Made by a program: the position numbers and the translations under genes | Origin: Ruminococcaceae bacterium UBA6353 | GTDB lineage: Bacteria; Bacillota; Clostridia; Oscillospirales; Acutalibacteraceae | DNA: 64,000 bases | Assembly (NCBI GenBank): GCA_002437905.1 | Contig: DJRT01000014.1 | Coordinates: 55,917 to 119,916, forward strand | Direction: 5' to 3' | Notes under the pieces: model-generated | The model's input: only the letters and a program-made list of their open reading frames with translations | Told to the model about the DNA's origin: nothing | Databases searched by the model: none | Shown here: positions 21,300 to 50,035 of the stretch, piece after piece | Layout: every line of letters starts with the position of its first letter | Position numbering within the stretch: the first letter of the stretch is position 1

Positions 21300-22076
21300 A
21301 TGGAGATTGTCAAGAAGATTGTCTTCGGTGATTCGGACGACAAACCGGTCGCCTGGGGACCCGGTGTGCGCAGCGAGCACATTATCCATTATGTCACCAA
21401 GGGGCGAGGCCGGATCTATTGCAACGGCCGGGAATATACCGTCACCGCCGGGGAGAGCTTTGTGGTGCAGCCGTACCGGATGATCCGGTATGTGCCGGAC
21501 ACCGACGACCCGTGGGGATACGCCTGGTGCATCATTGATGCCCAATCGGTGGAGATGATGATGGAGCAGCTGGTGTTTAAGCAGGACGATGTTACGATCG
21601 GCTATGTGGAGCCTGCCAAGATCGTGCCGCTGTACCGGATGCTGGACGAGGTGGGCAATTTCCCGGAGGCGGCCATGACCCGGTACGGATTGGCGCACGC
21701 CATTGTGGGGGTGTACCTGGATGCCTACCCGCAGCACCGGCTGACCGCCTCGGAGGCGCTGTATGAGCGGGCGGTGCAGATCGTTGAAAGAAAATTCCAT
21801 TCGGACAAGTATTCGGTGGCCGATATTGCCGCGGATCTGAACATCAGCGGCGCCACCCTATACCGCCTTTTTGTGACAAAAAGCGGCCTGTCGCCGAACA
21901 CCTATCTGCAGAGCTACCGCATCCAGCAGGCACAGAAAATGCTGAAGGCCGGCCTGACGATCAAGGAAACCGCGCTTTCCTGCGGGTTTTCCGACCAGTT
22001 CTACTTTTCCAAGGCGTTCAAAAAGATTGCCGGGCTGACGCCGACCGAGTACAAGCAGCGCGAAGCACGCCGGTAA
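21300..22076 (+). CDS. AraC family transcriptional regulator (cupin sensor + HTH)
   Basis: N-terminal cupin-like segment (HYVTKGRGRIYCNGREYTVTAGESFVV) and C-terminal AraC HTH (SPNTYLQSYRIQQAQKMLKAGLTIKETALSCGFSDQFYFSKAFKK). RBS AGGGAGG. Confidence 0.9.
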   Translation: MEIVKKIVFGDSDDKPVAWGPGVRSEHIIHYVTKGRGRIYCNGREYTVTAGESFVVQPYRMIRYVPDTDDPWGYAWCIIDAQSVEMMMEQLVFKQDDVTIGYVEPAKIVPLYRMLDEVGNFPEAAMTRYGLAHAIVGVYLDAYPQHRLTASEALYERAVQIVERKFHSDKYSVADIAADLNISGATLYRLFVTKSGLSPNTYLQSYRIQQAQKMLKAGLTIKETALSCGFSDQFYFSKAFKKIAGLTPTEYKQREARR

Positions 22077-22093
22077 TATAAGGTAATATATCC

Positions 22094-22151
22094 AATAGTT
22101 GTGTGGTACAAATGGCAGGGTGTTCCATTTGTGCTATACAACTATTTTTTT
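22094..22151 (+). terminator. Terminator after the AraC gene
   Basis: Long imperfect hairpin AATAGTTGT..ACAAATGG...CCATTTGT..ACAACTATT followed by TTTTTT. Confidence 0.65.
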
Positions 22152-22267
22152 CGCACGGCCAAGAATGATTTTGACATATCATTGAAGAAAATGTCCATGG
22201 CAAAGAACCGGGGGGTACGATAAAATTTGAATAGTGAAGTATTGACGACATAAGGAGGACGCCCACA

Positions 22268-23593
22268 GTGAGAAAGAAAATTGCCTGTCTGGCTATCGCA
22301 CTTTCCATGATCTTTGTCGCTTCCTGCGGAAATTCCGGGAAGCAGGACACGACTTCCGGCAATAAAACAACCAATCCGACAACCACGACCACTGCGCCCG
22401 AGCAGATCGGAACGACCACCGCACCCAGCGGTACCACCACCGCCGGCCGCAAGGATGGCACCACCACCTCGCAGCGGCTTGTCCGCGTGACGGTGACCAG
22501 CCAGGTGGCGGAGAGCGACCCCACCCGCCGCTCCGACCGGGACAGCAATGCCGGTGAGGATGCCGGCAACCGCGTATCGCAGGATCCGGTCAACCGGGAC
22601 GACGCGCCGCCGCTGACCGAATGGAAGCAGGGCACGCTGGGCTCGTACAAGCTGGTGTGGAACGACGAATTCGACAAGGACGGCATCGACTATAACAAGT
22701 GGTGCTACGGCTCGGAGAACCCGGACACCTACGACAACATGCTGCTGCTGACCGAGGATGAGGACCCCAGCATCATCACGGCTGAGGACGGCCTGCTGAA
22801 GATGAATGCCCGCCGCTATGTCAGCAAGACAAATTCGAAGATCGAATACGCGACCAACAAATCCTTCAGCACCCGCGAGACGATGAACTTCCGCTACGGC
22901 TATGTGGAGATGCGCGCCATGGTGCCGATGCGCGCCGGCAGCTTCTCCGCCTTCTGGGCGATCGGTAAGCCGGGCTTGGTCTCCAAGCTGCCGAACGGCT
23001 ACTACACCGAGATCGACTTCTTTGAGGAATTCGGCAGTGACTACGAGCTGGTGCCGAACTTCCACAAGTGGTACGACGATTACAGCCACAGCAACTTTGA
23101 TCTGAGCTGGTCGAAGAAGCAGGGCAATACCGGTATCGGCAAAACGCAGTACGGCATCTACCGTTTCAAGGATATCCGCACGCTGCCGTATGAATTCCAT
23201 CTGTACGGTGTGGAGTGGACCAAGGAATACATCAAGACCTATGTGGACGGCGAGTGCTACTGCACCTTTGATGTCAACTATGCCTACGATAAGGATTGGG
23301 ACTACGGCCCCAATGTAAATGCCACCCAGCCGCTCAGCCCCCAGAAGAAGGATATGAGTGGTTACCACGATTACATCTACCTGCTGCTGCAGAACCTGAT
23401 CTATGCCAATGCGGACAGCGGCGTGGGAGAGAACGGCAGCGTGATCACGCAGCACATCATTGATGAAAACACGATCTTCCCGTTCCAGTACTGGGTGGAT
23501 TATGTGCGGCTGTATCAGGATCCCACCAACCCCGACAACGGCCTGTACTATCTCAACGAGAATGGACAGAAGGTCAACTACTACAACAACTAA
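22268..23593 (+). CDS. Glycoside hydrolase family 16 lipoprotein (endo-beta-glycanase)
   Basis: GTG start after AAGGAGG. Lipobox LSMIFVASC. A Thr-rich linker (TTTTTAPEQIGTTTAPSGTTTAG) precedes the catalytic domain. GH16 catalytic motif EIDFFE (ExDxxE) and concanavalin-like Trp/Tyr pattern. Confidence 0.85.
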   Translation: MRKKIACLAIALSMIFVASCGNSGKQDTTSGNKTTNPTTTTTAPEQIGTTTAPSGTTTAGRKDGTTTSQRLVRVTVTSQVAESDPTRRSDRDSNAGEDAGNRVSQDPVNRDDAPPLTEWKQGTLGSYKLVWNDEFDKDGIDYNKWCYGSENPDTYDNMLLLTEDEDPSIITAEDGLLKMNARRYVSKTNSKIEYATNKSFSTRETMNFRYGYVEMRAMVPMRAGSFSAFWAIGKPGLVSKLPNGYYTEIDFFEEFGSDYELVPNFHKWYDDYSHSNFDLSWSKKQGNTGIGKTQYGIYRFKDIRTLPYEFHLYGVEWTKEYIKTYVDGECYCTFDVNYAYDKDWDYGPNVNATQPLSPQKKDMSGYHDYIYLLLQNLIYANADSGVGENGSVITQHIIDENTIFPFQYWVDYVRLYQDPTNPDNGLYYLNENGQKVNYYNN

Positions 23594-23614
23594 CAGCGGA
23601 AAGGGTTACAGAGA

Positions 23615-26503
23615 ATGAAGCTTGTCAGGAGATTATGTGCGGCCGCAGCCTGCATGGCGGTGACCTTTGGCGCCGTTGGCGCCGCGCTGCCGCCGGCGGC
23701 AGCGGAGACCCTGCCGGCTGCGGCGGCGGATACCGTCACAGCGGCAGCGGATGGCTATGCGGTGTACGCGGCGGCGCTGACGGATTGCCCGGACGCGGCG
23801 CAGGCGATCACGCTGGCCGGCGGCGCTTACATACAGGCAACGGACGGACTGCAGCGCAGCGCCGACTATGAAACGGCACCGGACGCCGTGCTGCTGCCGC
23901 AGGGCACCGGCACCCTGACATATGAGCTGGAGGTGCCGCAGACAGCGCTGTACGCGCTCAGCCTGCGGTACGCCTCGCTGGAGGGCAATGGCCTGGATAT
24001 CCGCGTGGGCCTGCGCATTGACGGGGAGTACCCGTTCAGCGAGGCAGCGGAGCTGAGCTTTCCGCGCATGTGGCATAATGAGAGCGAGACCTGGAAGCAG
24101 GACAAGGACGGCAACGACCTGACCCCGGAGCAGACGGAATACCGCGATATGGTGGATCAGCCGGCGCGGGACAGCCTGGGCGTGGAGGTGGAGCCGTATG
24201 TTTTCCGGCTGACCGCCGGCCGCCACACCATCACGGTGGAGGGCGGCGGCGAGGCCTTTGCCCTGGGACAGCTGCGTTTCCTGCCGCCGGAGCGGCCGGC
24301 CGCCTATACGGCGCCGACGGATCTGACGGACGCGCAGGGGGTGCAGCCCATCCTGCTGCAGGGCGAGTCCGCGACCTATAAGTCCTCCTCGGCCATGGTG
24401 CCGAAAGGGGATAATACCGACGCAGCAATGACCCCGGCCAGCGCGGAGAATGTGCGCCTGAACTATATCGGCGGCTCCTCCTGGGCGAAGCCGAATGCCT
24501 CGGCCACCTGGAGCTTCCGCGTGGAGCAGGCCGGCTACTATAAGCTGGCTTTCCGCTTCAAGCAGGATCAGATCATCAATGCCAAGACCTACCGCCGCCT
24601 GAAGATCGACGGGGTGACCCCCTTTGCCGAGGCGGCGTGCATCGCCTTTCCGTATGCCACCAAATGGCAGGCGCAGGTGCTGACCAATGCCGCCGGCGAG
24701 GAGTGCCTGGTGTGGCTGGATGCGGGCGACCATACCGTCACGATGGAGTCCACCCTGGGCGCCGCGGCGGCGGTCTACGGCAAGCTGCAGACCATTGTGC
24801 AGAGCCTTGGCGACACCTACACCTCCGTGGTGATGGTGACCGGGGAATCCCCCGACGCCGGCCGCGATTATGAGCTTTTTCGCTCCATCCCGGGCTTTGA
24901 GGACACGCTGCGCACCAATATGGAGGCGCTGGATGCCCTGGTGCAGGAGCTGCAGACGCTCTCCGGTAAGAAGAGCACGCAGGCCATTGCCTCCATGCAG
25001 AATATGCGCCGGGTGCTGCGCCTAATGCTGGAGCGCCCCTATATCGCGCACCAGTACCTTTCGGATTATTATTCCAACTACTGCTCCGTCAGCGCATGGA
25101 TGAACGATATGTCCTCCATGCCGCTGGCGCTGGATGAGCTGCGTATCGTGTACCACTCGCAGGAGGCGGAGATGCAATCGGTCGGGGTGCTTGACCGGCT
25201 GCTGTTTTCCCTGCGGCGGTTCATCAATTCCTTCCGCCAGAATGACGGCAGCCAGGCCACGGCGAAGAGCGACACCAAGCTGCGCCTGTGGGTGAACTGG
25301 GGCCGCGATCAGACGCGTGCCCTGAGCAGCCTGATCCAGGACTCCTTCACGGCCGGCACCGGCATTGAGGTGGATGTGCAGATGGTCAACGCCACGCTGG
25401 TGCAGGGTATCATGTCCGGCAATGCGCCGGATCTGGCGCTGCAGATGTCGCGTGCGGAGCCGGTAAACCTCGGTATCCGCAATGCTCTGATGGATCTGAA
25501 GAGCTTTCCGGACTATGAGGAGGTGCTGCAGCGCTTCCAGCCGGGCGCCGAGGTGCCCTACTGCTACAACGGCCGCTGTTATGCCCTGCCGGATACCCAG
25601 AGCTACATGGTCATGTTCTACCGCACGGATATCCTGGAGAAGCTGGAGCTGGAGGTGCCGAACACCTGGGAGGACTTTATCCGTGCCTCCACGGTGATCC
25701 AGCGGCACAATATGCAGGTGTACCTGCCGTATACCCGCATCACCTCCGGCACCACGGTCAATGCCGGTATCGGCAGCCTGAACCTCTATCCGACGCTGAT
25801 GCTGCAGAACAAGCTGCCGCTGTATAACGATGAGCAGACGGCGACGGTGATCGGCAGCGAGCAGTCGGTCTCGGTGTTCGACAGCTGGACGCGGATGTAC
25901 ACCGATTATCAATTCTTGAAAGAGGCGGATTTCTACAACCGCTTCCGTACCGGCTCCATGCCCCTGGGCATTGCCGGCTATACCACCTGCCTGACGCTTT
26001 CGCAAACGGCGGCCGAGATCGATGGCCGCTGGGCAATGGCGCCGGTGCCGGCGGCGGACGGGGAGCACCACACCGTGGCCGGCAGCGGCACCGGCTGTGC
26101 GATCCTCTCCACCACCGACAAGGCGGAGCAGGCATGGGAATTCCTGAAATGGTGGACGAGTGCCGAGACCCAGGAGCGGTATTCCAAGAATGTGGAGTCC
26201 GTGCTGGGAACCGTCGGCCGTGTGGCGACCTCCAATGTGGAGGCATTCAAGAAGCTTTCCTGGAGTGCGACGGAGCGCGAGCAGCTGCTGGCGCAGTGGT
26301 CGCAGGTGCAGGAGATCCCGGAGATCCCCGGCAGCTATTATCTTTCCCGTGCGCTGGATCAGGCGTACTGGGAAGTCCTTAACGGCGTATCCAACAGCAT
26401 GGACGCCGTAAACAAGTGGAGCGATATCGCCAATGAGGAGATCTCGCGCAAGGTGCAGGAGTATGAGTACCTGGAGGAGGGCAGACGCAATGCCAAGAAT
26501 TAA
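23615..26503 (+). CDS. Extracellular solute-binding protein (ABC sugar importer 1) with two N-terminal CBM-like beta-sandwich domains
   Basis: 962 aa with a signal peptide (AVGAALPPAAAE). The first 400 aa or so contain two related modules (see findings). The C-terminal 520 aa or so look like a family-1 sugar-binding protein. It overlaps the first permease gene by 14 nt. Confidence 0.8.
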   Translation: MKLVRRLCAAAACMAVTFGAVGAALPPAAAETLPAAAADTVTAAADGYAVYAAALTDCPDAAQAITLAGGAYIQATDGLQRSADYETAPDAVLLPQGTGTLTYELEVPQTALYALSLRYASLEGNGLDIRVGLRIDGEYPFSEAAELSFPRMWHNESETWKQDKDGNDLTPEQTEYRDMVDQPARDSLGVEVEPYVFRLTAGRHTITVEGGGEAFALGQLRFLPPERPAAYTAPTDLTDAQGVQPILLQGESATYKSSSAMVPKGDNTDAAMTPASAENVRLNYIGGSSWAKPNASATWSFRVEQAGYYKLAFRFKQDQIINAKTYRRLKIDGVTPFAEAACIAFPYATKWQAQVLTNAAGEECLVWLDAGDHTVTMESTLGAAAAVYGKLQTIVQSLGDTYTSVVMVTGESPDAGRDYELFRSIPGFEDTLRTNMEALDALVQELQTLSGKKSTQAIASMQNMRRVLRLMLERPYIAHQYLSDYYSNYCSVSAWMNDMSSMPLALDELRIVYHSQEAEMQSVGVLDRLLFSLRRFINSFRQNDGSQATAKSDTKLRLWVNWGRDQTRALSSLIQDSFTAGTGIEVDVQMVNATLVQGIMSGNAPDLALQMSRAEPVNLGIRNALMDLKSFPDYEEVLQRFQPGAEVPYCYNGRCYALPDTQSYMVMFYRTDILEKLELEVPNTWEDFIRASTVIQRHNMQVYLPYTRITSGTTVNAGIGSLNLYPTLMLQNKLPLYNDEQTATVIGSEQSVSVFDSWTRMYTDYQFLKEADFYNRFRTGSMPLGIAGYTTCLTLSQTAAEIDGRWAMAPVPAADGEHHTVAGSGTGCAILSTTDKAEQAWEFLKWWTSAETQERYSKNVESVLGTVGRVATSNVEAFKKLSWSATEREQLLAQWSQVQEIPEIPGSYYLSRALDQAYWEVLNGVSNSMDAVNKWSDIANEEISRKVQEYEYLEEGRRNAKN

Positions 26504-27401
26504 GCGACCCGGCAGCACGCGGGCGCTGCTGCGCGAGCAGTGGCCGATGCTGGTGATGATGCTGCCCTTTTTCCTGTTGTTCACGGTGATGACGGTCATC
26601 CCCATCATCTGCTCGCTGGTGCTCAGCCTGACCTCGTATGATACGCTCAACCCGACCTATTTTGTCGGCATTGACAACTATCTGCGGCTGTTTGTCAGCG
26701 ACGCCTCCTTTCTGGTGGTGCTGAAAAACACGCTGGTGATCGTGCTGCTGACCGGGCCGGTGGGCTTCCTGCTGGCATTCCTGCTGGCGTGGCTGGTCAA
26801 TGAGTTTTCCCCGATGATGCGCACGCTGCTGTCCTTCATGTTCTATGCCCCGTCGCTGGCCGGCAATGCCTTCTTCGTGTGGAAGATCCTGTTCAGCGGC
26901 GACAGCTATGGCTACCTGAACAGCTTCCTGTTGAACCTGGGCATGATCACGGAGCCGGTGACCTGGCTGAGCGATGCCCGGTACCTGATGCCGATCATCG
27001 TGCTGGTGCAGCTGTGGCAGTGCATGGGTATTTCGTTCCTGTCCAATATTGCCGGTCTGCAGAATGTCAACCGCGACCTGTATGAGGCCGGCGCGATTGA
27101 CGGTGTGCGCAACCGCTGGCAGGAGCTGTGGTACATCACGCTGCCCTCCATGCAGCACATGATCCTGTTCAGCGTGGTTATGCAGATCCAGAGCAGCTTT
27201 TCGGTCAGCGCGATCACGACCGAGCTGGCCGGCTATCCCAGTGTGGGGCAGTCGGTGGATACCATTGTGTCCCACATGATCGATGTGGGCACGGTGCGGT
27301 ATGAGATGGGATACGCCTCAGCAGTGGCTGTGGTGTTGTTTTTACTGATGGCAGGGACGCGGATCATCCTCGGCAAATTCCTGCAGATGATCGGAAGGTG
27401 A
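26490..27401 (+). CDS. Carbohydrate ABC transporter permease (MalF/UgpA-like), importer 1
   Basis: Six predicted TM helices and the EAA loop LYEAGAIDGVRNRWQELWYITLP. ATG at 26490 lies inside the end of the binding-protein gene. Confidence 0.88.
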   Translation: MPRIKRPGSTRALLREQWPMLVMMLPFFLLFTVMTVIPIICSLVLSLTSYDTLNPTYFVGIDNYLRLFVSDASFLVVLKNTLVIVLLTGPVGFLLAFLLAWLVNEFSPMMRTLLSFMFYAPSLAGNAFFVWKILFSGDSYGYLNSFLLNLGMITEPVTWLSDARYLMPIIVLVQLWQCMGISFLSNIAGLQNVNRDLYEAGAIDGVRNRWQELWYITLPSMQHMILFSVVMQIQSSFSVSAITTELAGYPSVGQSVDTIVSHMIDVGTVRYEMGYASAVAVVLFLLMAGTRIILGKFLQMIGR

Positions 27402-27411
27402 CGGACGCGAC

Positions 27412-28323
27412 ATGAAAACTGCTACCCTACATAAGCTGCGGCGCCTGCGGCTGGGCCATGCGCCCGGCAGCCTGAGCAGCCGCCGCTTTACCCGCTCGCG
27501 CTTCGGCAACTTCCTGTGCCTGCTGGTGATCGTGCTGGCCGGCCTGTTTACCATGCTGCCGCTGATCTACGCGGTGGCGACTTCCTTTAAGCCGCTGGAT
27601 GAGCTGCTGCTGTTTCCGCCGCGCTTTTTTGTGCGGCGTCCCACGATTGAAAACTACACAGCGCTGTCCGGGCTGCTGTCGGATCAGTTTATCCCCCTGG
27701 GACGGTATCTGTTTAACAGCCTGTCCATCAGTGCCGTGACCACGGCGGTCTACATTCTGATCTCGGCTATGGCGGCCTTTGGCCTGTGCAAATCCCGGTT
27801 CCGCTTCTGCGGGCCGCTGTTCATGATCGTGCAGTTTGCACTGCTGTTTAACCCCTATACGCTGGCGGTGCCGCAGTATCTGATCCTGGCCCGCCTGCAT
27901 GTGATCGATACCTATTGGGCCTACATACTGCCGCAGCTTTCGGCTACGCTGGGTGTTTTCCTGCTCAAGCAGTATATGGAGGGCGCCCTGCCGGACGCTC
28001 TGCTGGAGGCGGCGCGCATCGACGGCGCGGGGCTGTTCCGGGTGTTTTTCCAGATCGCCCTGCCGCTGGTGAAGCCGGCGCTGCTGACGCTGATGCTTTT
28101 CTGCTTCCGCGATTCCTGGGCGATGGTGCCGCAGGGCACCATCTTCCGCGAGCAGCTGAAAACGCTGCCGATGGTCATGTCCCAGATCGCCGCCGGCGGC
28201 ATTGCCCGTTCCGGCAGCGCCATGGCGGTAACGGTCATTCTGATGATCCCGCCGGTGATCGTGTATCTGATCTCGCAGAGCAATGTGATCGAGTCGATGA
28301 GCAGTGTCGGCATTAAGGAATAA
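27412..28323 (+). CDS. Carbohydrate ABC transporter permease (MalG/UgpE-like), importer 1
   Basis: EAA loop LLEAARIDGAGLFRVFFQIALP. RBS GGAAGGTGA. Confidence 0.88.
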   Translation: MKTATLHKLRRLRLGHAPGSLSSRRFTRSRFGNFLCLLVIVLAGLFTMLPLIYAVATSFKPLDELLLFPPRFFVRRPTIENYTALSGLLSDQFIPLGRYLFNSLSISAVTTAVYILISAMAAFGLCKSRFRFCGPLFMIVQFALLFNPYTLAVPQYLILARLHVIDTYWAYILPQLSATLGVFLLKQYMEGALPDALLEAARIDGAGLFRVFFQIALPLVKPALLTLMLFCFRDSWAMVPQGTIFREQLKTLPMVMSQIAAGGIARSGSAMAVTVILMIPPVIVYLISQSNVIESMSSVGIKE

Positions 28324-28349
28324 GACAGCACCGTTGGGAGGATGGCAAG

Positions 28350-33624: not shown

Positions 33625-33634
33625 GAGGTGTGCC

Positions 33635-34612: not shown

Positions 34613-34785
34613 GCCGGCAGCAAGAGAGCCTTTTCCCCTGCGGCGGGCGCCCTGCATACGGGCGCTGTGGCCGCATTGCATAGCGAAAAAAGACGAAAAG
34701 CGCGTTTAGAGGAAAGAGGAGGTGGCGCAGCCCTACAATGTGTCCACGCAAATACCCCATAACACACAGAAAGGATGGAACAAGT

Positions 34786-36237: not shown

Positions 36238-36258
36238 GGGTACGGACGGATGAGCAGA

Positions 36259-36297
36259 ACCCCGGACAGCCCCGCCAGCCGGGGCGGTCCGGGTTTA
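36259..36297 (+). terminator. Strong intra-operon hairpin after the binding-protein gene (attenuator or mRNA-stabilising element)
   Basis: CCCGGACAGCCCCG / CGGGGCGGTCCGGG pairs at 13 of 14 positions, with a CCAGC loop. Only TTT follows, so termination is probably partial. Confidence 0.45.
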
Positions 36298-38905: not shown

Positions 38906-38923
38906 ACGGAAAGGGGTAAGGAA

Positions 38924-39046: not shown

Positions 39047-39063
39047 AAACGGAGGGTACGGCC

Positions 39064-39570
39064 ATGAAGCGTCCGTGTGATTTTTCTGCACAGGCACTCC
39101 GGCGGCCGGCCGCTCTGCTGGCAGCGGGGCTGCTGGCAGCACTGCTGCTGGCCGGCTGTCCGCGGCGCAAGCCCGCCGCGGACAGCAGCACCCCGCCGCC
39201 GGCGGATACGGCGGCAACCACCACCTCCCCGCTGCCGGAGGGCGGCGGGGAGGCCACCGGCACCACCACTGCCCCGGATGGGGCGGCGGCTGCGCCGGGC
39301 ACCAGACCCGGCAAACAGCCGGCAAGCCCGGCCACGCCGGGAAAGGCGGACGGACAGGTGCCGCTGGGGGAGGATGAAGCCCCCGCCACCACCACCGCCG
39401 GAACGGCGGCGCCGACCACCACGGCGGCGCAGCCGCAGGGCACCACCACGGCGCCGAGCAAGGCGCACACCACCACGACCAAAAAGCAAACCACCACCAC
39501 GGCGGACCCCAAGCAGGCGGTGGAGGACCCCAATAACTATGTAGAGGTTCCGCTGCCCAAGCGGCACTGA
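39064..39570 (+). CDS. Thr/Pro/Ala-rich lipoprotein (low complexity, stalk-like)
   Basis: Lipobox LLLAGC. The rest is almost entirely low-complexity sequence with repeated GTTTAP(D/S) units and a short C-terminal DPNNYVEVPLPKRH tail. Confidence 0.7.
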   Translation: MKRPCDFSAQALRRPAALLAAGLLAALLLAGCPRRKPAADSSTPPPADTAATTTSPLPEGGGEATGTTTAPDGAAAAPGTRPGKQPASPATPGKADGQVPLGEDEAPATTTAGTAAPTTTAAQPQGTTTAPSKAHTTTTKKQTTTTADPKQAVEDPNNYVEVPLPKRH

Positions 39571-39671
39571 GCGCGGGCAGCCCTCCGCATGGAGAAAAGA
39601 CACCCCGGCAGGAGCCGGTCAACGGCTGGCTTTCTGCCAGCGATCCACCGACACTATGGAAAGGTGAAAGC

Positions 39672-42600
39672 GTGAAAGCTATGAAAATGAGATTACCGAA
39701 AATCGTCTCCGTTCTCAGCGCGCTGGCCATACTGGTCGGTTCGCTGTCGACCGGGATGTTTTTTGCCGGCAGCGTTTCCGCCGAGGCAGCAAACATCTGG
39801 GACGGCCAGGCGGCGGCAATCACCCAGGGCAGCGGCACCAAGGAGGATCCCTACCGGATCCAGAACGGAGGCCAGCTGTACACGATGGTGACAGCCGGAG
39901 CGGAGGAAACCGCCGGCAAGTATTATAAGCTGACAAAGGACATTTATCTGAATGATGTTTCTGCCCCCGGCTGGCAGAACGGCACGGTGAACAGCTGGCC
40001 GAATCGCCAGGTGTTCGCGGGCAATCTGGATGGCGACGGCCATGTGGTATACGGCCTGTACTCCGTCAATGACGAGCGCGTTGGCCTGATCCCGCAGGTC
40101 AAGGGCACGGTCAGCTTGACCAACCTTGGCCTGGAGAGCTCTTATTTGAAGATCACCGGCTGGGGCTATATCGGCGGCCTGATCGGCTTTGTCGAGAGCA
40201 ACACCAGCTTTACCGTGAACCAGTGCTATGTGGGGGCGGGTGTGGAGATCGCCAACCCCGGCAGCAAAATGGGCCAGGGCGGCCTGGTGGGCTATGTGGA
40301 CGATGGCTGCGTCGGCATTGAGATGAACAATTGCTACTCGCTGGCCTCGCTGACCGGCCCCACCGCCGTCAGCGATACCCGCAGCACACTGATCGGCCGC
40401 GTGGGCGGTGCAGCCGCCGGGCGGTATCCGTGGGATCACTTCCATGTGCGGTACAGCTACGGCGTGGCGCCGAACGCCCCCGAGCTGTTCCCGCTGGCCT
40501 CCTACACCTGGCAGGGTGCGCGCATGGACTACTGGCAGATCTACGCCCCCACCAAGGGCGGCGCGGAGTCCGGCACCAACTCTGACCGCATCAAGGTGCT
40601 GACCCCGGAGCAGATGCAGGGCACCGAGGCAAAGAACAACATGGGCGGCCTGGATTTCGCGGTGACCTGGGCGGTCGGCGAGGCCGGCCAGTACCCCACG
40701 CTGCGCGTGTTCCAGCATGACGATACCCCGTCGGGGAACGACAAGATCTGGGACGGTGCGGCGGCGGCCATCACCGAGGGTGACGGCACCGCGGAAAACC
40801 CCTACCTGATCACAAACGGCGGTCAGCTGTATACCATGGTGACCGCCGGGCAGACGGCTACCGCCGGCAAGTACTATAAGATCACGCAGGATATTTACCT
40901 CAATGATGCCACCTTCGCCGGCTGGGAGACCGGCACGGTGAACGCCTGGCCGAACCGCCGGGTGTTTGCCGGTAATCTGGATGGCGATGGCCATGTGATC
41001 TACGGCCTGTATGCCGTCGGCGATGAGCGCGTCGGCCTGCTGCCGGAGATCGCCGGCACGGTCAGCGTGACCAACCTCGGCCTGGAGAATTCCTATCTGA
41101 AGATCACCGGCTGGGGCTATGTCGGCGGCTTGATCGGCCTGGTGAATGAGAACACCAGCTTCACCGTGAACCACTGCTATGCCGGGGCGGGCGTGGAGAT
41201 TGCCAACCCCAACGGCGGCATGGGTCAGGGCGGCCTGGTGGGCTTTGTGAGCAACAACAGCGCCGGCATCGAGATGAACTATTGCTACTCGCTGGCCTCG
41301 CTGACCGGCACGGCCAACAACACCGGTACGCTGATTGGGCGTGTGGGCTCGGCGGCGGCCGGAAAGGCCCCGTGGGACGATTTCCACCTGCGCTACAGCT
41401 ACGGCGTGGCGCTGAATGCACCGGATAGCTATGCACTGGTGCACACGACCTATGAAGGCACCATGATGGACTACTGGTGCGTCTATGCCCCCACCAAGGG
41501 CGGCGCGGAGTCCGGCACCCATGCGGATACCCGCATCACCGTGGTGACCACGGAGCAGATGCAGGGCGCGGCAGCCCGGGAGAACATGGGCGGTCTCGGC
41601 TTTGGCAATGCGTGGATCGCCGGCGGAGATGGGGTATACCCCACGCTGAAGGTTTTCCGCCGCCTGGACGGCGATGTGTGGAACGGCCGTGAGGCCGCCA
41701 GCTTTGCCGGCGGCACCGGCACCGAGGCTGACCCCTATCTGATCGAGAACGGCGGGCAGCTGTACAAGATGCTGGTCAACGGCAACACCACGACCGCAGG
41801 CAAATACTATAAGATCACGCAGAATATCTATCTGAACGATATATCGGATCCGGATTGGCAGAAAAACAGCCCGAACCAGTGGATCTCCTTCTCCTGGAGT
41901 GGCGATGGCTGGTTCGCCGGCCACCTGGATGGCGACGGCCACAAGGTTTTCGGCCTGTACTACGGGCACGATTCGGTGCGTGAACGCGCCGCGCTGATCC
42001 CCACGGTGAATACCGACCAGGATGTGGAGATCAAAAACCTGGGCATCGAAAACGCCTACCTGGCAGACCGCATTTATGCAGCCGGTCTGGTGGCGATGGT
42101 GCAGGGCAGCGGCAGCGTAACAATATCCCATTGCTATGTAGGCAGTGATGTGGAGATCAAGTCCAACGACTTCCAGGGCGGTCTGATCTGCTTCCTGCAT
42201 ATTCCCAAGCTGACGATGGAAAATTGCTATTCTCTGGCTTCTCTTACCGGCGCTGTGGCGGCGGATCACAGTGGTGCACTGATCGGATTTTCTTCCGATA
42301 ATGCTGTCGGTTCAACCATCCGGAAGTGCTACGGTGTGGTCACAAACGATACGACCCTGCCGGTGACCTCCATCACCTGGCCGGGCACCCGTCTGAACTA
42401 CAACGCCGTTTTCGGCACCAGTAAGGGCGGCGTGAACCACAACAATTTCCCGGCAGTGGTCGAGATGGAAGTGGAAAAGCTGCAGGGAGCCGCTGCCGAA
42501 AGCTTCCTGGTCGGCTTCGACTTTGAAAATGAGTGGCTGGTGAACCGGAGCACCTACCCGACGCTGCTGATCTTCGGCGGCGCTGCCGGCGGCGAGGAGG

Positions 42601-45479
42601 ACCTGGCCGACCAGATGGACGGCGGTACCGGTACCGAGGCGGATCCCTACCGCATCCGCACCCCGGAGCAGCTGCAGGCGGTGCGCACGGCCATGAGCCG
42701 GCAGACCCGCGGCAAGTACTTCAAGCTGATGAACGATATTGCCGTAAATGATGTGAGCAAGGCCAACTGGAAGGCCTCCGCCGTGAAGTGGGATACCGAT
42801 CCCTATGCGCTGTTCTGCGGCTACTTCAATGGCGACGGCCATGTGGTGCGCGGCCTGTACCTGGATGCCGGCGACGGCGTCGGTGCGGCACTGTTCAGCC
42901 GCCTGGGCAAGGGCGCTGTGGTGGAAAAGGTCGGCGTGGAAAGCTCCTATTTCAAAGCACAGCAGGCTGCGGCGATCGCCATCGGTGTTTCCGGCGAGGG
43001 CGTAACGGTGCGCCAGTGCTATGCGGACGAGACCGTGGAGATCGAGGGCAGCGTATACTGCGCCGGCCTGATCTCTGATGTGCGCGCCAACCGCTTTACC
43101 CTGAACAATTGCTTCTTTACCGGTAAGCTGACCGGCGGCACCGATGAAGTGCCGAAGTCCGGCTTTGTGGCGACCTTTACCGGCATCAGCAGCAAAATCT
43201 CCATCACCATCAGCGGCTGCTATACGGCCACAGCGGATGATGACTGGACCGTGCGGCCGGACGGCCCCGTGATGGGGAATATGCACATTATCAATGTGTA
43301 CGGCACGAAGGAACAGACCTTCCGCGATGACTGGGCGGCGGCCAGCTACACCAAGCTGGGCGATTATTACCGCGTGGATAAGGCGGATATGCTGGGTGAT
43401 AAGGCCAAAACGACCATGAAGGAGCTGGATTTCACCGCCGCCTACATCACCAAGCCCGGCAAGACCCCGCGTCTGCGGGTGTTCACCGGCGATGTGGAGG
43501 CCAACACCGGCACGGTGGGGGCGATCTGGTCCGGCGCCATTGCGGCCGCCTATGCCGGCGGTACCGGCACCGAGGCGGATCCGTACCTGATCGAAACAGC
43601 GGAGCAGCTGGCTCTGCTGGTCAATACCATGGTGGAGCAGCCCTACCTGACCACGGATAAGCACTATGCGCTGCTGCACGATATCCGTCTGAACGATACC
43701 TCCGCAGAGGAATGGTATAAGAAGGACGGTCTGAACGATTGGTTCGATGACTTCGTTTACCGCGGCCCCGGCTTCCAGGGACACTTTGACGGTCGCGGTC
43801 ATACGGTGGACGGCATCTGGTTCACGGTAGTGGACGGTGACCGCCGCCTGAAGGACGACTGGCACTCCTATGCGCTGTTCCCGACCCTCGGTTCCGGCGC
43901 ACAGATTGAAAATGTGGCAGTGGCCAACTTCTATTCTTCGCCCAGATGCACCCATGTGGGCGGTATTGCCGGCGGTATGACTCTGCTGACGCTGGAGAAG
44001 CCGGTGTCTATCCAGCGGTGCATTGCAGCCAGCACCTGCCAGCTCAACGGTTCGAACTCCGGCGGTATGATCGCCCATGTTCCTCAGGCTATCAGCATTA
44101 TCGACTGCATCACCCAGAGCCAGGGCGAGGGCATCCATTCCCGCGGTACCCTGGTGGGTATGATGGATTCGCCTGTTCCCGTGGTGGTGACCAACTGCCT
44201 GTCGGTGGATGTCGGCCGTCAGCCGATGCTGTGGTACAGCAGCGATAACGGCCGCCCGCAGCCGATCCTGACCAATGTCTATTCCACCTACGGCTCCACC
44301 GGCATCAAGACCGTCGGTCTGAGCGAGCTGATGGGGGATAAGGCGAAGGAGACCCTCAAGGGCTTCGACTTTGACCATGTGTGGCTGGCTGTGGAGGACG
44401 GTACGCCCACGCTGCGGGTGTTCGGCGGCAATGCCTATTCCCGCCCGAAGCGCAAGGTGACCATTTCCTTCTACACCTTTGGCGGTTCCTCTGTGCCGGA
44501 GGTCAGCGGCTACCCGGGTGAAAAGATCCCGTGGCCGGATACCAGCACCGTGACCCGCAATGGCGACAGCTTTGTCGGCTGGTACATGGAGGATACCTGT
44601 GTACGCCCGTACCCGGGGGATACCTTCTTGGAGTACGATATAGTGCTGTATGCCAAGTGGACGGTCAAGAGCTTTACGCAGAATTTTGAGACCTATCCCT
44701 ATGGCACCGCCGGGCTGGAAGGCCTTGGCGAGGACTACGAGCGGTATCGTCCCGGCGTGCTTGGTTATCAGATGGGACACACCCACGACGGCCTGGCCTC
44801 CCTGCACCGCCTTGGTCGGGATGCCGATGCCGGCGAGCAGGACTTCCAGCTGTTCGAATATGGCTGGGGCACCCTGGAGAACGGCCGCGAGTACACCATG
44901 ACCTTCTGGATCTATCCGGAGACGGTCAATGATGCCAAGGACTTCATCAAGCTGGTCCATACCGACTATCTGGATGTAAGCCAGCCGTCCTACTATGTGG
45001 AGAACATCTGCAGCCTTGGCGGGCTGAAGGTGGGCGAATGGCAGCAGGTCAAGTTTACCTTTAGGGCCTACACAGACTTCTTGGCCATTCGCACCCCGGC
45101 ACTGTCCAGCCTGTATTTCGACTCCTTTGTGATCGCCCCCAGCGGCACGATCCAGAAGGATCTGCCGGTGCCGAGCGGCGGCAGCAAGACCACCGTGACG
45201 GAGGAGTGGCGGTACGAGACGGTGTACGAGGATGATGTACAGCCCGGCGGCACGCAGACGGATATACAGCCGGGTGCGGACGATGGCGATGACAACAGCC
45301 AGTCGACGGTGAAAAAGTATCAGAAAAAGTATGTCAAGAAGAAAAACAGCGCCAATGGCGAGGCTACCGTGATGTGGATCTGGATTCTGGTAGCGGCCGG
45401 TGTGGTGGTTGTCGGCGGCGGTGTGTGCATCTTCCTGCTGCTGCGCCGCAAGAAGAACAAGCAGAAACAGCCGGAGTAA
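39672..45479 (+). CDS. Giant membrane-anchored GLUG-motif repeat protein B (five modules + Listeria-Bacteroides repeat + CBM-like domain + C-terminal TM anchor)
   Basis: GTG at 39672 lies 5 nt after GGAAAGGTG, with alternative ATGs at 39681 and 39687. Signal peptide (FFAGSVSAEAA). Five modules are followed by VTISFYTFGGSSVPEVSGYPGEKIPWP..FVGWY (Flg_new-type repeat), a beta-sandwich domain, and the TM helix VMWIWILVAAGVVVVGGGVCIFLLL + RRKKNKQKQPE. Confidence 0.85.
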   Translation: MKAMKMRLPKIVSVLSALAILVGSLSTGMFFAGSVSAEAANIWDGQAAAITQGSGTKEDPYRIQNGGQLYTMVTAGAEETAGKYYKLTKDIYLNDVSAPGWQNGTVNSWPNRQVFAGNLDGDGHVVYGLYSVNDERVGLIPQVKGTVSLTNLGLESSYLKITGWGYIGGLIGFVESNTSFTVNQCYVGAGVEIANPGSKMGQGGLVGYVDDGCVGIEMNNCYSLASLTGPTAVSDTRSTLIGRVGGAAAGRYPWDHFHVRYSYGVAPNAPELFPLASYTWQGARMDYWQIYAPTKGGAESGTNSDRIKVLTPEQMQGTEAKNNMGGLDFAVTWAVGEAGQYPTLRVFQHDDTPSGNDKIWDGAAAAITEGDGTAENPYLITNGGQLYTMVTAGQTATAGKYYKITQDIYLNDATFAGWETGTVNAWPNRRVFAGNLDGDGHVIYGLYAVGDERVGLLPEIAGTVSVTNLGLENSYLKITGWGYVGGLIGLVNENTSFTVNHCYAGAGVEIANPNGGMGQGGLVGFVSNNSAGIEMNYCYSLASLTGTANNTGTLIGRVGSAAAGKAPWDDFHLRYSYGVALNAPDSYALVHTTYEGTMMDYWCVYAPTKGGAESGTHADTRITVVTTEQMQGAAARENMGGLGFGNAWIAGGDGVYPTLKVFRRLDGDVWNGREAASFAGGTGTEADPYLIENGGQLYKMLVNGNTTTAGKYYKITQNIYLNDISDPDWQKNSPNQWISFSWSGDGWFAGHLDGDGHKVFGLYYGHDSVRERAALIPTVNTDQDVEIKNLGIENAYLADRIYAAGLVAMVQGSGSVTISHCYVGSDVEIKSNDFQGGLICFLHIPKLTMENCYSLASLTGAVAADHSGALIGFSSDNAVGSTIRKCYGVVTNDTTLPVTSITWPGTRLNYNAVFGTSKGGVNHNNFPAVVEMEVEKLQGAAAESFLVGFDFENEWLVNRSTYPTLLIFGGAAGGEEDLADQMDGGTGTEADPYRIRTPEQLQAVRTAMSRQTRGKYFKLMNDIAVNDVSKANWKASAVKWDTDPYALFCGYFNGDGHVVRGLYLDAGDGVGAALFSRLGKGAVVEKVGVESSYFKAQQAAAIAIGVSGEGVTVRQCYADETVEIEGSVYCAGLISDVRANRFTLNNCFFTGKLTGGTDEVPKSGFVATFTGISSKISITISGCYTATADDDWTVRPDGPVMGNMHIINVYGTKEQTFRDDWAAASYTKLGDYYRVDKADMLGDKAKTTMKELDFTAAYITKPGKTPRLRVFTGDVEANTGTVGAIWSGAIAAAYAGGTGTEADPYLIETAEQLALLVNTMVEQPYLTTDKHYALLHDIRLNDTSAEEWYKKDGLNDWFDDFVYRGPGFQGHFDGRGHTVDGIWFTVVDGDRRLKDDWHSYALFPTLGSGAQIENVAVANFYSSPRCTHVGGIAGGMTLLTLEKPVSIQRCIAASTCQLNGSNSGGMIAHVPQAISIIDCITQSQGEGIHSRGTLVGMMDSPVPVVVTNCLSVDVGRQPMLWYSSDNGRPQPILTNVYSTYGSTGIKTVGLSELMGDKAKETLKGFDFDHVWLAVEDGTPTLRVFGGNAYSRPKRKVTISFYTFGGSSVPEVSGYPGEKIPWPDTSTVTRNGDSFVGWYMEDTCVRPYPGDTFLEYDIVLYAKWTVKSFTQNFETYPYGTAGLEGLGEDYERYRPGVLGYQMGHTHDGLASLHRLGRDADAGEQDFQLFEYGWGTLENGREYTMTFWIYPETVNDAKDFIKLVHTDYLDVSQPSYYVENICSLGGLKVGEWQQVKFTFRAYTDFLAIRTPALSSLYFDSFVIAPSGTIQKDLPVPSGGSKTTVTEEWRYETVYEDDVQPGGTQTDIQPGADDGDDNSQSTVKKYQKKYVKKKNSANGEATVMWIWILVAAGVVVVGGGVCIFLLLRRKKNKQKQPE
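39790..44430 (+). repeat. Five tandem GLUG-type coding modules (about 0.9-1.0 kb each)
   Basis: Module boundaries are marked by YPTL(R/K/L)(V/I)F endings near 40716, 41660, 42580, 43490 and 44430. Modules 1-2 are close to the modules of protein A at the DNA level, and modules 3-5 are progressively more diverged. Confidence 0.75.
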
Positions 45480-45510
45480 ACTGACCGGCACCGGATCGGA
45501 GAATTTTTGC

Positions 45511-45545
45511 GGGGGCATCCGCACAGCGATGCTGCGGATGCCCCC
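45511..45545 (+). terminator. Hairpin after GLUG-B (weak terminator or processing site)
   Basis: 13-bp stem GGGGGCATCCGCA / TGCGGATGCCCCC with a 9-nt loop. There is no T-run, so read-through into the GH36 gene is likely. Confidence 0.4.
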
Positions 45546-45597
45546 GACCGGTCTGCCTATATCATATGTTTTATTGTCATGTGGAGGATATGGAACG

Positions 45598-47784
45598 ATG
45601 TCCATAACACATATGCCGCAGGAGCAGCGCTTTTTGCTGCAAACGGAGAATACGGCATACAGCTTTTGCGTGGAGGGCGGGGATTTCCTGCGCCACGAAT
45701 ACTATGGTGAAAAGACGGCCTTTCAGCCGTGCAAGATCAAATGCCGCTCCTTTTCGCCCTATCAGGAACGACTTGGCGGCATCTTTTCCCAGAATACGGA
45801 TCTTCTGGAATTCCCCTTTTTCGGGAGCGGCGATTACCGCTGCAGCGCGCTGAAGCTGCGCGGCATACACGGGGATTGCTGCACCCTCTTTACCTATGAG
45901 AATTATCGCATCTTCCGCGGGCGCGAGACGATCCCCGGTCTGCCGTATGCACGGCCGTCGGCGCAGTGTGAAACACTGGAGCTGGCGCTGCGGGATCCGG
46001 TAAACGCCTGCCGGCTGCTGCTGTACTATACTGTCTTTCCGGAATACGACCTGATCACCCGGCACTTCTGCCTGGAAAACCGCGGAGAGGCCTCTGTTAA
46101 GCTGGAGAAGGCGATGTGCCTGAGCCTGGATCTGCCCGGCCATGCCTATTCGCTGGTATCGCTGCCCGGCGCGTACGCCTATGAGCGCAGTGTGCAGAAG
46201 ATGCCGCTGGGCTTCGGCACGCAGCAGATCACCAGCCGGCGGGGGATGATCGGCCACCAGCAGAACCCCTTTATGGCGCTGGTAGCCGACGGCGCCGATG
46301 AGGAGCATGGTTGTGCCTACGGCTTCAATCTGGTATACAGCGGCTCATTCCTGGATGAGGTGGAGGTCGATTTTCTCGGCAATACGCGGGTGAACATCGG
46401 CCTGGGTGAGGAATGCTTTGCCTGGCTGCTGGGGCCGGGCGAGCGCTTCTGCTCCCCGGAGGCCTACATGGTCTGCTCGGTCGAGGGCCTTGGCGGGATG
46501 TCCCGCCGGATGCACGCCTTTATCCGGGAGCAGATCTCGCCGCCGGAGCCGTTTGAACACCGGCCGGTGGTGCTGAACCCGTGGGAGTCCTGCGCCTTTG
46601 ATATCGATGAGCAAAAGCTGCTGGAGTTTGCCCGGCAGGGGAAAGCCTGCGGGGCGGATATGCTGGTGGTGGACGACGGCTGGTTCGGCGAGCGCAATAT
46701 GGATAATGCCGCCCTTGGCGACTGGTACGCCAACCGCAGAAAATTCCCGGATGGTCTGGCGAGCTTTGCGCACAAGGTGGTGCGCTGCGGCCTGCGCTTC
46801 GGCATTTGGATCGAGCCGGAGATGATCAATCCGGACAGCGACCTGTACCGGGCGCACCCGGACTGGTGCCTTTCCTGCCAGGGGCGCACAAACTCCCTTT
46901 CGCGCAACCAGCTGGTGCTGGATCTGTGCAATCCGGCGGTGCTGGAGTGCCTGAAGGAGCAATTCACGGCGGTGTTTGACGGCGTGCCGCTGTCGTATAT
47001 CAAATGGGACTGCAACCGCAACCTGTCGGAGGTTGGTTCGCCCTATCTGCCGCCGCAGCGGCAGGATGAGGCCTACTACCGTTACCAGCTGGGCGTATAC
47101 GCGCTGATGAACTGGTTCCGTGAGCGGTATCCGGGCGTGATGATCGAGAACTGCAGCGGCGGCGGCGGCCGGTATGACCCGGCCATGATGGCGTATTCCA
47201 CCCAGATATGGACCAGCGATAATACCGAGGTCGAGCCCCGTGTCCGGATCCAGTACGGCACCTCTCTGGCCTATCCGGCCAGCACCATGTCCTGCCATGT
47301 ATCCGACCCGTTCCGCGGCGATATGGAACCCCACCGCCGCCTGCAGAACAAATATGATGTGTCGCTGGCCGGTATGCTTGGCTATGAGCTGGATCTGCCG
47401 AAGATGCCGGAATGGGTGCAGCAGGAGATCCGGCAGCAGATCATCCGCTACCGGCAGATAGAGGAGCTGGTCAAGAGGGGAGATCTTTACCGGCTGGTAT
47501 CGCCGTTTGAAAACAGCCAGGATGTGGCGGCCTATTATTACACCGGCTCCCGCAGCCTGGGGGAGCCGGCCGGCCAGCGGATACTGCTGTCCTTCCTGCA
47601 GCCAATGGCGGCAGGAGGCGTGCAGAGCTTCCCGCTGCCGGTAAGCGTGGCACAGCCCGATGCGATATACCGCGACGCCTTCAGCGGCGAGACGGTCACC
47701 GGCGCGGTGCTGCGTGATGGCTATACCGTGCAGACGGATGCGGAAAATTCGGCCACCCGCGTATGGCTGTGGGAAAAGCAATGA
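45598..47784 (+). CDS. Alpha-galactosidase, glycoside hydrolase family 36
   Basis: ATG at 45598 after GGAGGA. GH36 hallmarks YIKWDCNRN, ENCSGGGGRYD and NPFMALV. 728 aa. Confidence 0.9.
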   Translation: MSITHMPQEQRFLLQTENTAYSFCVEGGDFLRHEYYGEKTAFQPCKIKCRSFSPYQERLGGIFSQNTDLLEFPFFGSGDYRCSALKLRGIHGDCCTLFTYENYRIFRGRETIPGLPYARPSAQCETLELALRDPVNACRLLLYYTVFPEYDLITRHFCLENRGEASVKLEKAMCLSLDLPGHAYSLVSLPGAYAYERSVQKMPLGFGTQQITSRRGMIGHQQNPFMALVADGADEEHGCAYGFNLVYSGSFLDEVEVDFLGNTRVNIGLGEECFAWLLGPGERFCSPEAYMVCSVEGLGGMSRRMHAFIREQISPPEPFEHRPVVLNPWESCAFDIDEQKLLEFARQGKACGADMLVVDDGWFGERNMDNAALGDWYANRRKFPDGLASFAHKVVRCGLRFGIWIEPEMINPDSDLYRAHPDWCLSCQGRTNSLSRNQLVLDLCNPAVLECLKEQFTAVFDGVPLSYIKWDCNRNLSEVGSPYLPPQRQDEAYYRYQLGVYALMNWFRERYPGVMIENCSGGGGRYDPAMMAYSTQIWTSDNTEVEPRVRIQYGTSLAYPASTMSCHVSDPFRGDMEPHRRLQNKYDVSLAGMLGYELDLPKMPEWVQQEIRQQIIRYRQIEELVKRGDLYRLVSPFENSQDVAAYYYTGSRSLGEPAGQRILLSFLQPMAAGGVQSFPLPVSVAQPDAIYRDAFSGETVTGAVLRDGYTVQTDAENSATRVWLWEKQ

Positions 47785-50029: not shown

Positions 50030-50035
50030 AAAAGC

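Follow-up and report, generated by a model that had tools for sequence, protein, structure and literature searches.

A conserved seven-gene core with twin translocators, a Yip1-type membrane protein and a DUF5696 lipoprotein as a probable glycan-import cassette of Firmicutes

The closest described relatives of the system reported here are CUT1 importers, ATP-binding cassette (ABC) transporters of which several draw on one shared ATPase. MsmX serves several CUT1 importers, among them AraNPQ, GanSPQ and MdxEFG of Bacillus subtilis, with MsmK and MsiK as further shared ATPases; the importers combine MalF/MalG heterodimers with EAA loops and a MalE-like domain, and no ATPase is encoded in their operons (PMC7658222, PMC5730181). 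A locus with these features is present in a 64,000-nucleotide stretch of the genome of Ruminococcaceae bacterium UBA6353, a member of the Acutalibacteraceae (contig DJRT01000014.1, positions 55,917 to 119,916; the whole stretch is called the window below). At 23615-34612 of the window lie seven genes that we call the core. They code for a long solute-binding protein (SBPL), the permeases P1a and P1b (translocator 1), a Yip1-type membrane protein (YIP), a lipoprotein of family DUF5696 and the permeases P2a and P2b (translocator 2). Judging from the sequences we consider it probable that this core is one conserved glycan-import cassette, and not two independent importers, and that its specificity comes from the flanking enzymes. 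The carriers are almost all uncultured and all of our evidence is computational.

Compared with the CUT1 systems the cassette is unusual in several ways. It locks two anciently diverged translocators (25% identity) into one unit, and its main solute-binding protein (SBP) has 962 amino acids (aa), is not lipidated and bears modules resembling carbohydrate-binding modules (CBMs) as well as helical ones. A Yip1 membrane protein and a lipoprotein with the predicted fold of glycoside hydrolase (GH) family 129 are obligatory in the cassette but absent from described CUT1 systems. As a polysaccharide utilisation locus (PUL), the locus contains the enzyme, transporter and regulator by which Gram-positive PULs (gpPULs) are defined (PMC5320581), in the form of GH16, ABC permeases with SBPs, and AraC, and a preliminary description of this DNA had rightly called it a glycan utilisation locus. 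However, gpPULs are loosely defined and have no invariant core, whereas the cassette consists of seven invariant genes with exchangeable enzymes and occurs in paralogous copies per genome. With the Sus-like systems of Bacteroidota it shares a common logic only, namely an invariant core for transport and binding, variable carbohydrate-active enzymes (CAZymes), surface lipoproteins and paralogous expansion. There is no homology between the two, the host here is a monoderm and uptake goes via ABC translocators; no Pfam match to a TonB-dependent transporter (SusC) or to the SusD family was found among the locus proteins.

A Yip1-domain membrane protein with both genetic and physical links to an ABC transporter has been described in Bacillus, where YknW modulates the assembly of YknXYZ (PMC4887032). 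YknW is small and has neither an extracellular propeller nor TPR repeats, and its partner is a MacB-type ABC exporter (YknYZ with YknX) with a role in toxin protection, not in sugar import. The streptococcal msm and raf operons contain an AraC-type regulator, the GH36 enzyme Aga, an SBP and two permeases; the gene of their ATPase, MsmK, is part of msm but lies elsewhere in the case of raf. Our locus resembles them in its AraC-type regulator, in its cytoplasmic GH36 of the AgaA kind and in a CUT1 importer that has no local ATPase, but GH36 is here an optional end-piece that directly follows P2b in 8 of 55 related loci. Since the locus also carries an extracellular GH16 and giant surface proteins, a polymeric substrate seems likelier than free raffinose-family sugars. 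Searches of the accessible literature returned no paper on DUF5696 (PF18952), nothing relevant on this association of Yip1 with ABC transporters or polysaccharide utilisation, and nothing relevant on CAZymes of Acutalibacteraceae or on GH129 together with Firmicute ABC transporters. Neither "Yip1" nor "MsmX" appears in a 2026 review of glycoside transport in bacteria, and NCBIfam holds no equivalog for any core protein. A widespread, invariant twin-translocator core for glycan uptake in Firmicutes is apparently undescribed in the searchable literature.

To follow the core across genomes, related loci were gathered from the contigs of DUF5696 homologues (87 clusters) and YIP homologues (353 clusters at E <= 1e-8). 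The YIP alignment was also scanned over one genome per GTDB species, giving 407 encoding loci in representative genomes; the best 80 of these 407 come nearly all from gut metagenome-assembled genomes of Acutalibacteraceae, Oscillospiraceae or Ruminococcaceae, the closest being 70% identical. Open reading frames (ORFs) of 88 loci were compared with the window proteins by BLASTP, and after removal of duplicates 84 loci remained, 70 of them with enough sequence. All 70 show the order SBPL-P1a-P1b-YIP-DUF5696-P2a-P2b on one strand. Exceptions to this order are contig ends, bar one reduced locus (L007) that keeps NHL, Yip1, DUF5696, P2a and P2b beside GH36, GH28 and AraC and is devoid of SBPL and of the P1 pair. 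The order is kept in Cohnella thermotolerans (Paenibacillaceae), in which the NHL and Yip1 parts are separate genes, and also at a DUF5696 identity of 24-28% and in loci found via DUF5696 alone. Gaps between the called core genes of individually inspected loci are no longer than 46 nucleotides (nt), and the DUF5696 and P2a genes overlap in five of eight distinct loci, four of these overlaps being 4 nt long.

The core proteins also diverge together. Although P1a and P2a are only 25% identical, as are P1b and P2b, each permease has its own orthologue as best match across the loci. Pairwise similarities of the seven proteins correlate with Spearman coefficients of 0.61-0.89, the highest being that of YIP with DUF5696 (0.89), and the correlation is as high between the two permease pairs as within a pair. 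The core proteins agree on the nearest-neighbour locus in 48-67% of cases, where chance alone would give about 1.5%. The surroundings, on the other hand, vary. Flanking enzymes include GH16, GH36, GH2, GH28, GH5, GH42, the GH63-like MGH1 family, GH78, GH13 and GH38, and one distant locus (L091) has no CAZyme nearby. The solute-binding lipoprotein SBP2 directly follows P2b in 35 of the 55 loci with enough downstream sequence, and the gene directly upstream of SBPL belongs in 33 of 52 loci to a cluster that joins GH16 and the giant surface proteins. AraC-type genes flank 26 of the 84 loci, and relatives of the giant 1935-aa protein flank most of them. In the closest relative found (L001, core proteins 60-83% identical) there are AraC and the seven genes, and no SBP2. 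By these comparisons the system appears to be modular around an invariant core of seven genes, and the window to show its most frequent arrangement. The system seems widespread, since the DUF5696 profile finds 6,926 clusters at 50% identity clustering (4,051 at E <= 1e-30). Several genomes hold two or three paralogous copies of the cassette. Three copies with different flanking enzymes are found in each of JAZNJD01 (L031/L036/L044), URNB01 (L018/L023/L056) and SVPF01 (L050/L058/L082), which resembles PUL expansion in Bacteroides.

The preliminary description had seen two complete and separate sets of permeases and binding protein in the locus and had given the Yip1 protein and the large lipoprotein only a passenger's role. 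Two ordinary CUT1 importers that happen to lie side by side, each with its own binding protein and with YIP and DUF5696 unrelated to either, would fit the window taken by itself, where an SBP gene adjoins each permease pair and both pairs look functional in sequence, and glycan loci of Firmicutes commonly contain sugar ABC systems in tandem (PMC5320581). The synteny disfavours this explanation so strongly that we hold it to be very improbable: the seven genes are strictly collinear as one unit in 70 loci from two Firmicute classes, all seven proteins are co-inherited, the intervening YIP and DUF5696 are the tightest-linked pair of all, the DUF5696 stop overlaps the P2a start, and SBP2 is often absent, as in the closest relative. 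The supposed passengers are the invariant centre of the system. The protein listed as binding protein 1 does possess an SBP domain but is no normal SBP, as this domain accounts only for residues ~555-930.

No ABC ATPase was found in the locus by motif and Pfam scans, and no ORF with a Walker A and an LSGGQ motif was found in the 88 related loci. The sole Walker A in a true ABC domain across the window belongs to a MacB-like ABC_tran+FtsX fusion of 1011 aa (14356-17391, minus strand), which we rejected as the energiser of the importers as it is a self-contained exporter-type fusion. EAA coupling loops can be read from the sequences of all four permeases. Because an ATPase for the translocators is missing from the window and from the 88 loci while these loops are kept, it is likely that both translocators are powered by a shared ATPase of the MsmX/MsiK type encoded elsewhere. 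The preliminary description had already noted that the window lacks a nucleotide-binding subunit and had sensibly suggested such an ATPase; an ATPase fused or overlooked inside the locus, which it had named as a possible objection, is rejected by the same scans.

SBPL, the first protein of the core, is predicted by AlphaFold2 (AF2; predicted local distance difference test, pLDDT, 87.9) to consist of two CBM35-like beta-sandwiches (residues ~60-225 and 245-380), a four-helix bundle (382-500), a MalE-like domain (555-930) and a long C-terminal helix. The best Foldseek matches of the MalE-like domain are oligosaccharide SBPs with target-normalised TM-scores of 0.70-0.81, and in the predicted structure it resembles binders of long or cyclic oligosaccharides. 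In the beta-sandwich region, 13 of 44 homologues match CBM_35 and 14 of 44 match Golvesin_C. Unlike typical Gram-positive SBPs, SBPL has no lipobox; nearly all of its homologues have a plain signal peptide and a loose lipobox pattern occurs in only 5 of the 44.

YIP carries a Yip1 domain (PF04893) that scores 41.9 bits against a Pfam cut-off of 28.6 at residues 512-682, and TPR and NHL were matched as well. Its hydrophobic segments lie between residues 476 and 687, and the family profile matches the propellers of TRIM-NHL, PknD and Pizza proteins as well as TPR proteins. We infer that YIP could act as a membrane scaffold or tether for the core proteins, since the unanchored SBPL needs a tether, YIP is the only core protein with a large extracellular surface for protein interaction, and YknW provides a precedent.

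The DUF5696 lipoprotein, whose lipobox recurs in 40 of 51 homologues, is the most divergent of the core proteins, with a median identity of 34% to the related loci against 53-64% for the permeases (P1a 63%). Its AF2 model, built from 51 sequences (pLDDT 91.5), consists of an N-terminal beta-sandwich, a (beta/alpha)8 barrel and a C-terminal beta-sandwich. The best structural matches by Foldseek are DagB, a 3,6-anhydro-D-galactosidase (5opq, E = 2.8e-34), and the GH129 enzyme NagBb (5wzn, E ~1e-27), which have the same three-domain architecture, at target-normalised TM-scores of 0.71-0.75; GH101, GH36 and GH31 come next. The family profile likewise matches DagB (E = 1.8e-10) and NagBb (E = 2.5e-4) in the PDB, in patches outside the catalytic region only. 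The single sequence has no match in the PDB, and a sub-alignment of the barrel region gave chance-level matches only against PDB sequences, with no residue-level alignment of the catalytic region. DagB shares this three-domain layout and requires Asp202, Asp486 and Glu517 for activity; NagBb shares only the equivalent of Asp486, and the DagB authors argue that DagB is not a true member of GH129 (PMC5698469). In DUF5696, D558 (96% of homologues), which sits in the loop that follows barrel strand 4, and D244 (92%), part of the N-terminal domain, lie within the intervals expected for Asp486 and Asp202 from anchor points of the hidden Markov model, which is a positional argument, and E653 is a further conserved acidic residue. 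DUF5696 differs from both enzymes in that identity is only 12-14%, in that the second catalytic residue of either is not recognisably conserved, in its constant place within a transporter cassette and in its Pfam family. On the strength of the model we place DUF5696 in the GH129/GH101 structural superfamily, in which it may or may not be a member of GH129 itself, and with moderate confidence we regard it as an active glycosidase. One homologue (P0086, on a contig of 2.6 kb) is fused to GH2 domains (Glyco_hydro_2_C, DUF4982), a fusion that speaks circumstantially for a part in the hydrolysis of glycosides. In a 99% identical relative (L093, GCA_963635395.1) the DUF5696 gene is called as two parts of 52 aa and 699 aa (locus coordinates 4115-6115); a frameshift, an error in the assembly or a start called at another position could each account for the split.

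These features lead us to propose the following way of working. The AraC regulator, transcribed separately, would turn on the operon upon the appearance of intracellular sugar. At the cell exterior, holding and cutting the polymer would fall to the GH16 lipoprotein and the giant repeat proteins, and SBPL, secreted without a lipid anchor, would bind polymer or long oligosaccharides via its two CBM35-like modules and hand oligosaccharides through its MalE-like domain to translocator 1. DUF5696, as a distant GH129-type enzyme, would trim oligosaccharides at the membrane surface, and its products would enter via translocator 2, either directly or through the optional SBP2. Such a division of labour between the translocators is suggested by two parallel units, [SBPL-P1a-P1b] and [DUF5696-P2a-P2b]. 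YIP, with its extracellular beta-propeller and TPR, would scaffold SBPL, DUF5696 and both translocators at the membrane, the shared MsmX-type ATPase from elsewhere would power both, and the cytoplasmic GH36 would strip alpha-galactose from the imported sugars. What the sequences show is the gene content, the topology signals, the predicted folds, the invariant order with co-inheritance, the variable flanks and the lack of an ATPase; the physical interactions, the catalysis by DUF5696, the division of labour and the substrate are what we infer. Going one step further, the core could be a stable supercomplex of surface and membrane, a monoderm "utilisome" in which YIP tethers SBPL and DUF5696 over the two ABC translocators and couples capture, trimming and uptake of two product classes. 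We put this forward tentatively, as a possibility that is rather doubtful at present.

Several points weigh against the proposed cassette or against parts of it. Co-transcription and complex formation are read from gene order alone, and with stable hairpins following both the SBP2 gene and the giant gene, the 26.5 kb are perhaps not one transcript. The correlated divergence of the core proteins partly reflects the species phylogeny that they have in common. The tethering role of YIP is an argument from the missing lipobox of SBPL and not a result. As to DUF5696, its homologues have no conserved counterpart of DagB Glu517 or NagBb Glu478, and D619 is Asp in only 69% of them, so that there is no universally conserved second catalytic acid; for this reason DUF5696 is perhaps not an enzyme. 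A constant DUF5696 enzyme is moreover hard to square with varied flanking CAZymes unless its specificity drifts.

The points concerning DUF5696 bear on a different reading of the same cassette, namely that this protein is a catalytically dead, glycan-binding member of the GH129 fold that serves as receptor or docking partner of translocator 2, in the role usually taken by an SBP. Both the lack of a universally conserved acid/base residue and the constancy of DUF5696 among changing enzymes would then be expected, and the many loci without a second SBP would be explained; SBP2 is absent from about a third of loci, the closest relative found included. The parallel units noted above, each with a tight or overlapping first junction, and the reduced locus L007, which has retained DUF5696 and the P2 pair together with NHL and Yip1, agree with such a receptor. 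Conversely, D558 and D244 are conserved at positions compatible with the essential residues of DagB, a homologue is fused to GH2 domains, and we know of no type I ABC importer with a TIM-barrel protein as receptor. Weighing these, we regard a dead receptor as unlikely but worth keeping in mind, and prefer the cassette with DUF5696 as a glycosidase.

It may also be asked whether the cassette harvests nutrients at all, or is mainly a sensing device (a transceptor) or a recycler of the cell's own envelope or extracellular polysaccharide. The distant locus L091, with no CAZyme nearby, would fit such a function; NHL propellers are extracellular sensor domains in PknD-type kinases, which are among the PDB matches, and the four-helix bundle present in SBPL is a module often found in sensors. 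Yet there is no linked kinase, response regulator or anti-sigma module, the regulators being classical cytoplasmic AraC or LacI types, and in most loci the flanks include secreted glycosidases together with a cytoplasmic one, as in nutrient harvest. The paralogous copies with different enzymes in one genome also speak against it, and we consider a sensing or recycling role to be scarcely credible next to glycan import.

If the cassette is what we propose, it would give a marker for Gram-positive glycan loci, and the DUF5696 family alone has thousands of members. Such loci are not known to have an invariant core comparable to SusC/SusD, and their detection and classification are difficult for that reason. 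Little is known of how Oscillospirales and Acutalibacteraceae harvest glycans, although these mostly uncultured bacteria are abundant in the gut. A large DUF family and a family of bacterial Yip1 proteins would also gain a function. Two translocators combined with one giant unanchored binding protein pose a question of design, for which the cultivable carrier Cohnella thermotolerans makes experiments feasible. Should the supercomplex be real, it would be the functional counterpart in Firmicutes of the SusC/SusD core, and DUF5696 would be the founder either of a new glycoside hydrolase family or of a new class of ABC receptors.

The coordinates of the core, of its neighbours and of the transcription signals are collected in Table 1. 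The plus-strand genes form an unbroken run of 26.5 kb from AraC to GH36 (21300-47784), as judged by ORF listing and third-position GC, and the next gene lies on the minus strand, just as the preliminary description had it. Its gene content also matches ours (a GH16 lipoprotein, two permease pairs, a Yip1 protein, a large lipoprotein corresponding to DUF5696, a second SBP, GH36 and a GH28-like neighbour), but we count 14 ORFs and not sixteen genes, or 15 if an unconserved ORF of 40 codons is included. This ORF (38924-39046, plus strand; MMNTKKQYNDPCMELYRLEQTEQLAKTTSDDGWVDIGEDE) lies between the genes of the 852-aa protein and the small lipoprotein and has a plausible ribosome-binding site; it was rejected as a gene, having no counterpart in 90 related loci. 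The junctions are exactly as they had been reported: the SBPL and P1a genes overlap by 14 nt (26490-26503, with the P1a ATG at 26490 and the SBPL stop at 26501-26503), YIP and DUF5696 meet in TAATG (30462-30466), and DUF5696 and P2a in ATGA (32737-32740). The terminator after the regulator, with its 22-bp stem and T7, stands as described. It is not quite alone, as the stable hairpins after the SBP2 and 1935-aa genes have to be added; the former (36257-36296) is possibly a partial terminator or an RNA-stabilising element. For SBP2 the ATG at 34786 is the likelier start, giving 483 aa.

Table 1. Features of the glycan-import locus and its immediate neighbours (positions in the window)
Feature	Position	Strand	Length	Remarks
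GH78-like six-hairpin glycosidase, short	19321..20823	-	500 aa	divergent upstream neighbour
Sigma-70-like promoter 5' of AraC gene	21206..21235	+		TTGACA, 18 nt, TACAAT, TG extension; 11/12 consensus; match to consensus only
AraC-family regulator	21300..22076	+	258 aa	cupin-type AraC_binding E = 1.1e-14; HTH_18 E = 1.9e-23
Intrinsic terminator 3' of AraC gene	22094..22151	+		22-bp stem, then T7
GH16 lipoprotein	22268..23593	+	441 aa	lipobox VASC; Thr-rich linker; Glyco_hydro_16 37.8 bits vs cut-off 22
SBPL (core, first gene)	23615..26503	+	962 aa	Sec signal peptide without lipobox; SBP_bac_8 and SBP_bac_1 at residues 566-858
P1a (core), MalF/UgpA-type permease	26490..27401	+	303 aa	BPD_transp_1; EAA loop EAGAIDG...ITLP
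P1b (core), MalG/UgpE-type permease	27412..28323	+	303 aa	BPD_transp_1; EAA loop
YIP (core)	28350..30464	+	704 aa	signal peptide; six-bladed NHL beta-propeller ~77-390; TPR ~400-455; ~6 transmembrane segments including Yip1 512-682
DUF5696 lipoprotein (core)	30464..32740	+	758 aa	lipobox LTGC; DUF5696 E = 2.6e-123
P2a (core), MalF/UgpA-type permease	32737..33624	+	295 aa	BPD_transp_1; EAA loop
P2b (core), MalG/UgpE-type permease	33635..34612	+	325 aa	BPD_transp_1; EAA loop
SBP2, solute-binding lipoprotein (accessory)	34738..36237	+		SBP_bac_1 E = 1.9e-12; Gly/Ser/Thr-rich linker
GC-rich hairpin 3' of SBP2 gene	~36257..36296	+		followed by UUUA
852-aa secreted protein	36347..38905	+	852 aa	two repeat modules, each ~320 aa
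Small Pro/Thr/Ala-rich lipoprotein	39064..39570	+	168 aa	lipobox LAGC
Giant surface protein	39672..45479	+	1935 aa	signal peptide; at least 3 repeat modules of ~320 aa; Listeria-Bacteroides repeat; C-terminal transmembrane anchor
Very stable GC hairpin between 1935-aa gene and GH36 gene	45510..45546	+		without U tract
GH36 alpha-galactosidase, AgaA-like	45598..47784	+	728 aa	Melibiase E = 2.8e-119; Glyco_hydro_36N E = 9.4e-68
Strong canonical terminator closing locus 3' of GH36	~47810..47870			common to convergent gene
GH28-like right-handed beta-helix protein	47912..49219	-	435 aa	convergent; Beta_helix E = 1.5e-10; Glyco_hydro_28 33.5 bits vs cut-off 22.9

The enzymes of the locus leave several candidate substrates, in agreement with the preliminary description. 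The GH16 lipoprotein has an intact ExDxxE catalytic motif (EIDFFE, aligned to EIDIME of a solved beta-1,3(4)-glucanase), and the solved structures nearest to it are GH16 laminarinases and beta-1,3(4)-glucanases, at an E value of only ~1e-13. GH36 matches AgaA of Geobacillus at E = 1.3e-176 and should be cytoplasmic, as it has no signal peptide. From GH16 and GH36 together our guess is a beta-linked glycan with alpha-galactosyl groups. A red-algal galactan, brought to mind by GH16 and the DagB-like protein, is a far-off idea only, since the resemblance is too distant and the hosts live in the gut. Of the surface proteins, the 852-aa protein shares 55% identity with the modules at the N-terminus of the 1935-aa protein and has no sequence match in the PDB and no significant match in Pfam. 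The name "GLUG block" given to this part of the locus did not survive: the best GLUG match (PF07581), found in one protein only, is below threshold, as it scores 12.8 bits where the cut-off is 20.5 (E = 0.18).

Outside the locus the window encodes a GH123 catalytic domain (E = 7e-105; 8702-10333, plus strand) and two short GH78-like six-hairpin proteins of ~485-500 aa (7005-8459 and 19321-20823, both minus strand). The GH123, GH78-like and GH28-like genes around the locus suggest a specialist in glycan degradation. Further downstream (51833-55443), a second AraC-type regulator on the minus strand is accompanied by an MBL-fold protein, a member of the enolase superfamily (MR_MLE) and an SDR. 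In related loci with GH36 behind the core, the next genes include those of MBL-fold, xylose-isomerase-like TIM barrel and MGH1-like GH proteins, and some other related loci contain genes of GFO/IDH/MocA oxidoreductases. Together these genes hint at a linked sugar-acid or keto-sugar pathway. A patch of low GC content (0.51 against ~0.61) at 50000-52000 contains a 414-aa ORF (50292-51536, minus strand) with no Pfam match and two terminator-like copies, ~95 nt apart, of CAGGGCGCGGTCTTG with a T run (50051-50071 and 50146-50166, plus strand); the patch may be foreign or intergenic repeat DNA. A SpoIVB gene at 17891-19177 and a GC content of ~61% are signs of a Firmicute that forms spores. Two more genes are apparently unrelated to the locus, one coding for a GGGtGRT-family protein (2593-3627, plus strand; E = 4e-187) and the other for a membrane protein of 845 aa, possibly LtaS-like, that has a sulfatase domain (55537-58074, minus strand).

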